The notes: generated from the letters alone by a model not told the origin. Shown: positions 2,010 to 2,996, counted from the first letter of the stretch. The stretch: DNA of 13,109 bases from Tupaia chinensis (GCF_000334495.1 NW_006159661.1:881702-894810); one strand, 5' to 3'. A program made the numbers and translations.

Positions 2010-2093
2010 GCTTCACCCTATCAAAATGTTTATTCTGATAATGAACATATATCATGTTCTTAGTGTAAATTAATATTTCTCAAAACTGCTTGA

Positions 2094-2331
2094 TTTTTTT
2101 CCCTGTAGGGTGCATGGGCTCACCAGAGAGAAACAGAAACAGAGACAGAGACAGAGGGAGAAAATGAGAAATCATTCCCCCAAAGGGGATGCTCATACTG
2201 CAATCCCTTCTCCACTCTCCTCAGGATTTTGGCCATGCACACACATATGCCCACTGTGATTTTCAAGCCACTGGGTCAGAGTTGGCTGTGTAAGATCCAG
2301 TCACCTTAACCTCCACACCACCTGCCGGCTC
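2094..2331 (-). mobile_element. Long-family SINE, old copy with a short-family-type head; first unit of a tandem triple array
   Basis: A T-run precedes ccctgtagggtgcatgggctcaccagagag...gatgctcatactgcaatcccttctcc...ggccatgcacacacatatgcccactgtgattttcaagccactgg...ccacaccacctgccggctc. The flanks carry actgcttgattttt at 2082-2100 and 2332-2350. Confidence 0.8.
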
Positions 2332-2344
2332 AAGAACTGCTTGA

Positions 2345-2609
2345 TTTTTTTTTTTTTTTGAGAGGTTTTTGCTATAGGGCGTGTGCACTCGCCAGAAAGA
2401 CAGAGAGAGACAGAGAGATAGAAAGAGAGAAATCACTCCCCCAGGGGAATGGCCACACTGCAATCCCTTCTCCTCCATTTTCCTCTTGGGATCTTGGGCA
2501 TGCATGCCCATGCGCCAAGCGTGAGTTTAAGCCACCGGGTCTGGGACTCGAACTGTGGTTGACTACATTGGAGTCTAGCGACATAGCCATTACGCTAACT
2601 GCTGGTCCC
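2345..2609 (-). mobile_element. Long-family SINE, intermediate age; second unit of the tandem array
   Basis: A T-run precedes gagaggtttttgctatagggcgtgtgcactcgccag...catgcatgcccatgcgccaagcgtgagtttaagccaccgggtctgggactcgaactgtggttgactacattggagtctagcgacatagccattacgctaactgctggtccc. Several CpGs have mutated to TpG or CpA. Confidence 0.9.
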
Positions 2610-2622
2610 AAGAACTGCTTGA

Positions 2623-2888
2623 TTTTTTTTTTTTTTTTGAGAGGTTTTCGCTATAGGGGTGCGTGCGCTCGCCAGACAGACAGAGACAGAGAGACAGAAA
2701 ATAAGAAATCACCCCCCGAGGGGGGATGGCCATGCCGCAATCCCTTCTCCTCCATTCTCCTCTCGGGATCTTGGGCACGCACGCACACGCGCCCGGCGTG
2801 AGTTTTTAAGCCACCGGGTCCGGGACACGAACCGCGGTCGACTACGTGGGAGTTCAGCCACATAGCCATTATGCGAACTGCTGGTCCC
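2623..2888 (-). mobile_element. Long-family SINE, young CpG-intact copy; third unit of the tandem array
   Basis: A T-run precedes gagaggttttcgctataggggtgcgtgcgctcgccag...cacgcacgcacacgcgcccggcgtgagtttttaagccaccgggtccgggacacgaaccgcggtcgactacgtggg...ctggtccc. It retains ~20 CpGs, and actgcttgattttt follows again at 2889-2902. Confidence 0.9.
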
Positions 2889-2996
2889 ACTGCTTGATTT
2901 TTGATGGGACTCATAGGAATGGATTCTTCTATGTCCAAAGACTTTCTTTTTAGCCAGATTCCAAAATAAAATCTGGTTTTATAAAGGAGATATGCT

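Follow-up and report, generated by a model that had tools for sequence, protein, structure and literature searches.

The locus analysed here holds three SINEs in direct tandem, each flanked by the same short motif, and raises the question of whether one genomic site received three separate insertions or whether a single insertion was multiplied in place. The window, meaning the whole stretch of DNA that was analysed (13,109 nt), is vertebrate-like and CpG-depleted (overall CpG observed/expected 0.42, GC 43.5%), and 19 SINE intervals were counted in it, amounting to about 28% of its 13.1 kb. A preliminary description had interpreted the array as an insertion hot spot, formed by repeated nicking of one T-rich target.

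Anatomy of the array and of its SINE family

Positions 2082-2902 of the window comprise three minus-strand, poly-A-tailed SINEs (U1, U2 and U3). Four copies of a single target motif bracket and separate them; in SINE sense the motif is AAAAATCAAGCAGTTCTT, and its successive copies measure 17, 18, 18 and 14 nt. A motif search returned matches at 2082-2098 (with one 1-nt indel relative to the others), at 2333-2349 and 2611-2627 (both exact), and at 2886-2902, where the motif is the last 14 nt alone (2889-2902). These four matches in the region compare with 0.09 expected from shuffled sequences, and 0 of 200 shuffles contained as many. The sole other match in the window search, at 6535 with 3 mismatches, was dismissed as chance. 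Both the motif search and the sequence itself bear out the preliminary description, in coordinates and in wording, of a motif occurring four times around three consecutive minus-oriented SINEs.

Read along the minus strand, the array begins with the flank CCCATC and continues through AAAAATCAAGCAGT (14 nt, 2902..2889), U3 (2888..2639), A11, AAAAATCAAGCAGTTCTT (2627..2610), U2 (2609..2360), A10, AAAAATCAAGCAGTTCTT (2349..2332), U1 (2331..2101), AA and AAAAATCAAGCAGTTTT (2098..2082) to the flank GAGAAATATT; all of the features that follow lie on the minus strand. The oldest motif copy, m17' (2082..2098), reads AAAAATCAAGCAGTT-TT in SINE sense, has a 1-nt deletion relative to the 18-nt form, forms the 3' TSD of U1, and adjoins the original left flank, gagaaatatt when read in SINE sense. 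The tail of U1 is reduced to two A's (2099..2100; plus-strand T), and the terminal (C/T)CTCTC and poly-A of the family are missing from this unit. U1 itself (2101..2331), the oldest SINE, has an intact 5' end (GAGCCGGCAGGTGG...) and contains 1 CpG. Motif copy m18b, AAAAATCAAGCAGTTCTT (2332..2349), doubles as 5' TSD for U1 and 3' TSD for U2. The latter (2360..2609) is a full-length 250-nt SINE of intermediate age with 8 CpG, and is followed by a pure tail of 10 A's (2350..2359) ahead of the motif's own A5. Motif copy m18a (2610..2627) is the 5' TSD of U2, and its first 14 nt in SINE sense are the 3' TSD of U3. The youngest unit, U3 (2639..2888), is again a full-length 250-nt SINE, with 21 CpG and a pure tail of 11 A's (2628..2638), and its 5' TSD is the outer motif copy m14, AAAAATCAAGCAGT (2889..2902), which is 4 nt short and lacks TCTT. 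Tails and motif A-runs together appear as plus-strand T-runs of 7 nt (2094-2100), 15 nt (2345-2359) and 16 nt (2623-2638). The TSD pairs are identical at 17/18 positions for U1, 18/18 for U2 (m18a against m18b) and 14/14 for U3, so that the one mutated motif copy is that made by the oldest event, the insertion of U1.

The family was characterised by comparison with other copies of the U2/U3 type. Five near-full-length copies were taken from the window (747-997, 5769-6018, 9745-9989, 8675-8880 and 3585-3811), and an independent sample of five came from short host-DNA contigs of the ENA metagenome assembly ERZ27259875; together these 10 copies served as the outgroup for polarising differences between U2 and U3. 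One host contig (L003, 5232-6281) of the same assembly holds an intronless, full-length, open copy of ribosome production factor 1 (RPF1; 349 aa, Brix domain), a processed retrocopy with an intact ORF and SINEs of the same family around it. Orthologues from many placental orders match it at 90-93% identity and that of wallaby at 86%, which identifies the host of the external copies as a placental mammal.

The target motif is absent beside all 10 of these copies (5 window, 5 external loci), and it is therefore target DNA rather than part of the element. Four other window copies have clear TSDs, all different, of 13-16 nt, which directly follow the A-tail and start at or beside an A-run; three of them begin AAAA. 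Such a combination of an A-tail with a variable TSD starting at or near an A-run marks LINE-1-type target-primed reverse transcription (TPRT), as summarised in PMC2836564. The array displays the same features: flanking TSDs within the range of about 7-20 bp, poly-A directly before the TSD in U2 and U3, and a TSD start at CATC|AAAAATC in SINE sense, which corresponds to TTTTT/GATG on the plus strand at 2902/2903. No LINE ORF was found in the window.

Heads of the SINEs were searched for a pol III promoter with the consensus box A TRGCNNAGTGG and box B GGTTCGANNCC at tRNA-like spacing, and such a promoter was found. In U2, box A (TAGCGTAATGG) lies at position 13 and box B (AGTTCGAGTCC) at position 56, with 1 mismatch each; U3 has box B (GGTTCGTGTCC) at position 56 with 1 mismatch, and the CpG-restored consensus contains GGTTCGAGTCC, an exact box B match. 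Box B has been lost in U1. ARAGORN detected no tRNA-like gene in the SINE heads, and Rfam gave no tRNA match at E<=1; its 38 matches all fall far under the gathering scores, and 29 of them come from an inverted (TC)n/(GA)n low-complexity stretch at about 2960-3126. The promoter may thus be termed tRNA-like, and descent from a particular tRNA would go beyond the data. A 29-nt head pattern of the SINE had 0 matches in JGI metagenomes, SINE sequence strings in searchable paper text produced only chance primer matches, and exact look-ups of two ORFs (one spanning U2, motif and U3, the other flank, motif and U3) returned no record. A homologue search with the ORF of flank and U3 recovered SINE-derived ORFs from one ENA assembly only, none of which covered the flank-encoded N-terminal residues.

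The surroundings of the array are also rich in repeats. The interval 2982-3239 contains a minus-strand SINE with another type of head (GGGGCCGGGTGGTGGTGCAGTGG..., about 3002-3219) and its own 20-nt TSD, TAAAGGAGATATGCTTCTTC (2982-3001) and TAAAGGAAATATGTTTCTTC (3220-3239), which match at 18/20 positions. Its (GA)n-rich tail lies beside a (TC)n run, and the long inverted low-complexity stretch formed in this way accounts for many sub-threshold, spurious miRNA matches in Rfam. At 3380-4232 there are four more minus-oriented, head-to-tail SINEs, two of them short copies consisting of a head and a CT-rich tail (about 3386-3518 and 3834-3957). These SINEs appear to be stacked via their A/T-rich tails; the sole TSD pair identified in the cluster is that of the 3386-3518 copy (about 29 nt, 2 mismatches), which is unlike the target motif of 2082-2902, and that motif does not recur there. 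All eight SINEs between 2094 and 4232 are in one orientation. Elsewhere in the window a long (TG)~31 microsatellite is found at 5142-5202, and the stretch 8876-8990 comprises the A22 tail belonging to the 3'-truncated SINE copy 8675-8880 and, after it, a (TTATT)n array. The segment 11001-13109 has a GC content of 0.50-0.52, against about 0.41, and a strongly negative GC skew; it could be CpG-island-like or genic, and no conserved ORF was seen in it.

Relatedness and relative age of the three units

The three units are not copies of one another. U1 is 69% identical to both U2 and U3, 66-70% identical to five near-complete copies of the U2/U3 type and 63% identical to the 3'-truncated copy at 8675-8880, and its closest relative in the window reaches 77% or less. 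Its 5' end is complete and lies exactly at the motif boundary. The head (GAGCCGGCAGGTGGTGTGGAGGTTAAGG...) aligns with the older copies at 243-317 and 3386-3518, with about 15 nt, including box B, deleted, in agreement with the short-head type to which U1 had initially been assigned. U1 is a member of an older subfamily of the same SINE lineage.

U2 and U3 are 85.4% identical, which is within the range seen among unlinked copies (77-93%); to U3, the copy at 747-997 is a closer match (93.1%) than U2. When their approximately 35 differences were polarised with the 10 outgroup copies, the number of derived states common to U2 and U3 was 0. The two units also differ at indels (columns 84 and 219-222), and each state occurs in several unlinked copies as well. 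Substitutions diagnostic of different subfamilies were sought between U2 and U3, and those that qualify are just homopolymer or microsatellite indels and CpG-linked columns, which lend weak support to a subfamily distinction. The preliminary description had argued for separate insertions rather than a segmental tandem duplication, and had named near-identical units with common private mutations as the finding that would speak against it. Neither near-identity nor any common derived state was found between U2 and U3, and with U1 at 69% identity and of an older subfamily, the case for separate insertions is strengthened.

Two further explanations of the tandem arrangement were rejected. An assembly artefact is at odds with units that differ by 15-31%. 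A composite (dimeric or trimeric) SINE is at odds with the full A-tail and 18-nt target motif between units, the motif being absent from other copies.

The units differ in age, and age increases from U3 through U2 to U1. CpG counts are 1, 8 and 21 in U1, U2 and U3, corresponding to observed/expected ratios of 0.07, 0.46 and 0.95, and the ranking by CpG decay that had been made from inspection holds. At 21 ancestral CpG sites, inferred from the outgroup copies alone, U3 has kept 17/21 and U2 7/21 (Fisher p=0.004); decay to TG or CA accounts for 12 of these sites in U2 and 2 in U3. A relative-rate test likewise gave 24 unique substitutions in U2 against 11 in U3 (p=0.03). Unique changes outside CpG do not differ significantly (10 in U2 against 7 in U3, p=0.63), and private non-CpG substitutions number 10 in U2 and about 3-7 in U3. 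The age gap between U2 and U3 therefore rests on CpG sites, and unequal germline methylation of the two neighbours could mimic part of it; the difference is a CpG-clock result, which assumes that both have been methylated alike. For U1, the near absence of CpG, the older subfamily, the lack of a close relative, the internal deletion and the only mutated TSD pair all argue for the greatest age.

Candidate mechanism and rival explanations

Three independent LINE-1-type insertions of one tRNA-like SINE lineage very probably re-used a single endonuclease nick. Before any SINE arrived the site would have read …TTCTCAAGAACTGCTTGATTTTTGATGGG…, that is, ...CCCATC|AAAAATCAAGCAGTTCTT|GAGAAATATT... in SINE sense and ...ttctc AAGAACTGCTTGATTTTT/GATGGG... 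on the plus strand. In each event the plus strand would be cut after the T5 run of the first-strand nick site TTTTT/GATGGG (2898..2908, plus strand), a cut that the TSD geometry and the L1 endonuclease preference (PMC2836564) would place at 2902/2903, and the T-run would prime on the A-tail of the SINE RNA. The other strand would then be broken 18 nt away for U1 and U2, after TTCTT in SINE sense, and 14 nt away for U3, and fill-in of the stagger would duplicate the motif. Since each insertion would leave the nick and the downstream flank T5/GATGGG unchanged, the site would stay usable, and every newcomer would enter between the GATGGG flank and the previous element. Because newcomers would always arrive on the flank side, the array would grow one way with all units oriented alike, so that U3 lies beside the nick and U1 at the greatest distance from it; the common orientation of the units is also what a single strand-specific nick requires. 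The anatomy, the lack of close relatedness among the units and the age gradient are direct observations, whereas which enzyme cut, where exactly in the T5 run it did so and in what order the units arrived are inferred. The preliminary description held that each insertion regenerates a motif copy downstream, which is then hit again; serial re-hits are retained, with the refinement that the original first-strand nick at 2902/2903 would be what is re-used.

All five features expected from such a process are present. The units have a single orientation, identical motif copies lie between them, and age rises monotonically with distance from the nick. An A-tail precedes the inner motif copies and the original flank precedes the outermost copy only, and the outer motif is short; its reduction to 14 nt would follow from a second-strand break at +14 instead of +18 in the third event. 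The start of the motif is identical in all copies at the resolution set by its 5-nt A-run, within the shift of about 1-3 nt or less by which use of the same site was defined. For U1 and U2 the inner motif copies adjoin poly-A, which limits the placement of the nick to somewhere in the A5/T5 homopolymer, and the details of the U1 insertion are less certain owing to the lack of a proper A-tail and of a terminal CTCTC. PMC2836564 describes a first nick at TTTT|AA and places the second some 15-16 bp from it. With respect to the patterns in PMC4084570, the second break TCTT|G fits TYTN|R, and TC|AAAA departs from TT|AAAA by a single base.

Two short sequence matches at the junctions were also noted. 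The 3' junction of U1 (2094-2110) reads ...CCCTACAGGG followed by A7 and then directly TCAAGCAG, and the subterminal AAAAATC of the older subfamily has the same letters as the start of the target motif. Either internal priming, in which target GATTTTT pairs with AAAAAUC, or a later deletion between two AAAAATC repeats could have produced this junction. Separately, a 7-nt identity, AGCAGTT, exists between the 5' head of the SINE, GGGACCAGCAGTT, and the target motif, ATCAAGCAGTTCTT (2876-2896 and 2597-2619), and the 14-nt TSD of U3 ends exactly after AGCAGT. Microhomology-mediated 5' joining of U3 via AGCAGTT was considered and rejected, as the complete 5' end of U3, GGGACC, is still present ahead of the AGCAGTT in U3 itself, and the match between head and motif is probably a coincidence.

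An early tandem duplication of U2 with its motif, through unequal exchange or slippage between the 18-nt repeats and followed by divergence in place, would produce a periodic structure such as that of U2 and U3, which Tandem Repeats Finder (TRF) reports as a 279-bp period present twice with 84% matches. Both units are 250 nt long, their A-tails measure 10 and 11 nt, identical 18-nt motifs separate them, their non-CpG unique changes are similar (10 and 7), and the missing common private mutations speak only against a late duplication. However, copies 279 bp apart and of equal age would hardly have decayed at 12 against 2 of 21 CpG sites, the approximately 35 differences include no common derived state, each indel state recurs in several unlinked copies, and U3 is closer to the 747-997 copy than to U2. 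Common private mutations, units of equal age and full-length junction repeats would be expected and none of the three is seen, although on non-CpG changes alone the age difference is not significant. The 14-nt outer motif would need an additional 4-bp deletion precisely at the junction, which unequal crossover does not predict, and U1 and U2 would be left unexplained, so that at least one re-hit of the site would be needed regardless. Moreover, mammalian homologous recombination normally uses homology far longer than the 18 bp available here. Such a duplication is very unlikely. If U3 were instead a local duplicate of U2 that was later overwritten by a younger, CpG-rich copy, it would resemble an independent young insertion, and gene conversion between SINE copies is reported in PMC8230782. 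Yet two rare events would stand in place of one ordinary event, the conversion tract would have to span all 250 nt and end at the motif boundaries, no mosaic is seen (differences between U2 and U3 are spread along the whole unit), and the 14-nt outer motif would again be left unexplained, which makes overwriting extremely improbable.

The units could also have arrived in the reverse order. L1-driven elements prefer existing A-rich tails, and U3 might have inserted first, with the 14-nt TSD, to be followed by U2 and then U1 at the upstream junctions of A-tail and 3' TSD. The final structure would be identical and, because the original sequence continues with TCTT past the 14-nt TSD, geometry does not separate the two orders; the A15-16 runs would be excellent targets for endonuclease and priming, and the nearby cluster at 3380-4232 has SINEs stacked via A/T-rich tails. 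What decides against it is age, for this order predicts that U3 is older than U2 and U2 older than U1, and the CpG observed/expected ratios of 0.95, 0.46 and 0.07 show the opposite. U1 would in addition be the last arrival despite its older subfamily, its internal deletion and its lack of a close relative, and the mutated motif pair would be the youngest while the supposedly older pair is identical. We therefore consider the reverse order highly improbable.

Serial insertion at one nick being preferred, it was asked how unusual a triple hit would be. If 19 insertions are distributed over about 26,000 strand positions, the expectation of a triple coincidence is about 1e-6 per window; if only the window's 146 TTTT/R sites can be hit it rises to about 0.05 per window, or thousands per genome, in a naive and crude estimate that assumes equal site weights. 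A triple hit is thus uncommon in any one window, yet many are to be expected across a genome. At about 0.05 per such SINE-rich window an exceptional hot spot is unnecessary. The proposed hot spot thus survives as a site re-used three times, and calls for nothing more than a favourable endonuclease target amid DNA saturated with SINEs. The array has no evident function and arose neutrally, as a side effect of the sites that the endonuclease prefers in SINE-rich DNA.

The identical 18-nt stagger in U1 and U2 would nonetheless be an unexplained coincidence unless the second break was guided by sequence too. It is conceivable, though we think it unlikely, that the site was a sequence-defined, self-renewing landing pad rather than the object of a chance triple hit. 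Both break points match the published consensus (TC|AAAA ... TCTT|G). The first three bases of U1, GAG, are also the first three of the original flank, GAGAAAT (2325-2339 and 2075-2084), so that the second-break context TTCTT|GAG was preserved after U1 and U2 followed with the same 18-nt stagger; the recreated context could explain that stagger, and the nicked 3' end GATTTTT, complementary to AAAAAUC, could have guided internal priming of U1. Should such sites prove widespread, each stacked array would preserve the succession of SINE subfamilies at its locus in an ordered and datable form.

Comparison with known systems

The array is a clean case of a known phenomenon and reveals no new mechanism or function. 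It illustrates on a single haplotype a property of TPRT, namely that the endonuclease site survives insertion, which allows repeat use and a directional stack. For repeat annotation, tools similar to TRF will label U2 and U3 as a 279-bp tandem repeat; for phylogenetics based on SINE presence or absence, re-use of the same site is a source of homoplasy; and for dating, order within the locus gives relative subfamily ages.

Close parallels are found in the CanSINEs of Felidae, where existing loci are often targeted, giving tandem arrays with overlapping or identical TSDs, and where Walters-Conte et al. 2014 (PMC4084570) ascribed the hotspots to motifs of the L1 endonuclease, TTAAAA(N)0-8TYTNR. 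As at the felid hotspots, several independent SINE insertions have formed a tandem array at one locus. In felids, independence was established from presence or absence across species, and several events occurred in different lineages or orientations, whereas here three events on one haplotype share one orientation and, very probably, the same nick, and their independence is read from the sequence of the units. Precise parallel insertions make up 0.18-0.29% of SINE cases in toothed whales and are about 12.5-fold rarer for primate Alus (Doronina et al., PMC10531181). In toothed whales, separate lineages were hit in parallel at a site that was still empty, which is homoplasy, while the hits described here are serial, on an occupied site and within a single lineage.

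Composite SINEs, such as a dimeric SINE (PMC13023118), resemble the array in having SINE-derived units head-to-tail in one orientation, but a composite has one TSD pair around the whole and no target DNA between its units, whereas each unit here has its own tail and TSD. Finally, the proposed TTTT|AA-like first nick on the antisense strand, with the T-run priming on the A-tail, is like that of Levy et al. 2010 (PMC2836564), who explained repeated use of the same positions by local sequence. Their hotspots, for Alu and other TE insertions, are positions in consensus repeats summed over many genomic copies; the array at 2082-2902 would represent one unique site used three times, with an 18-nt stagger.
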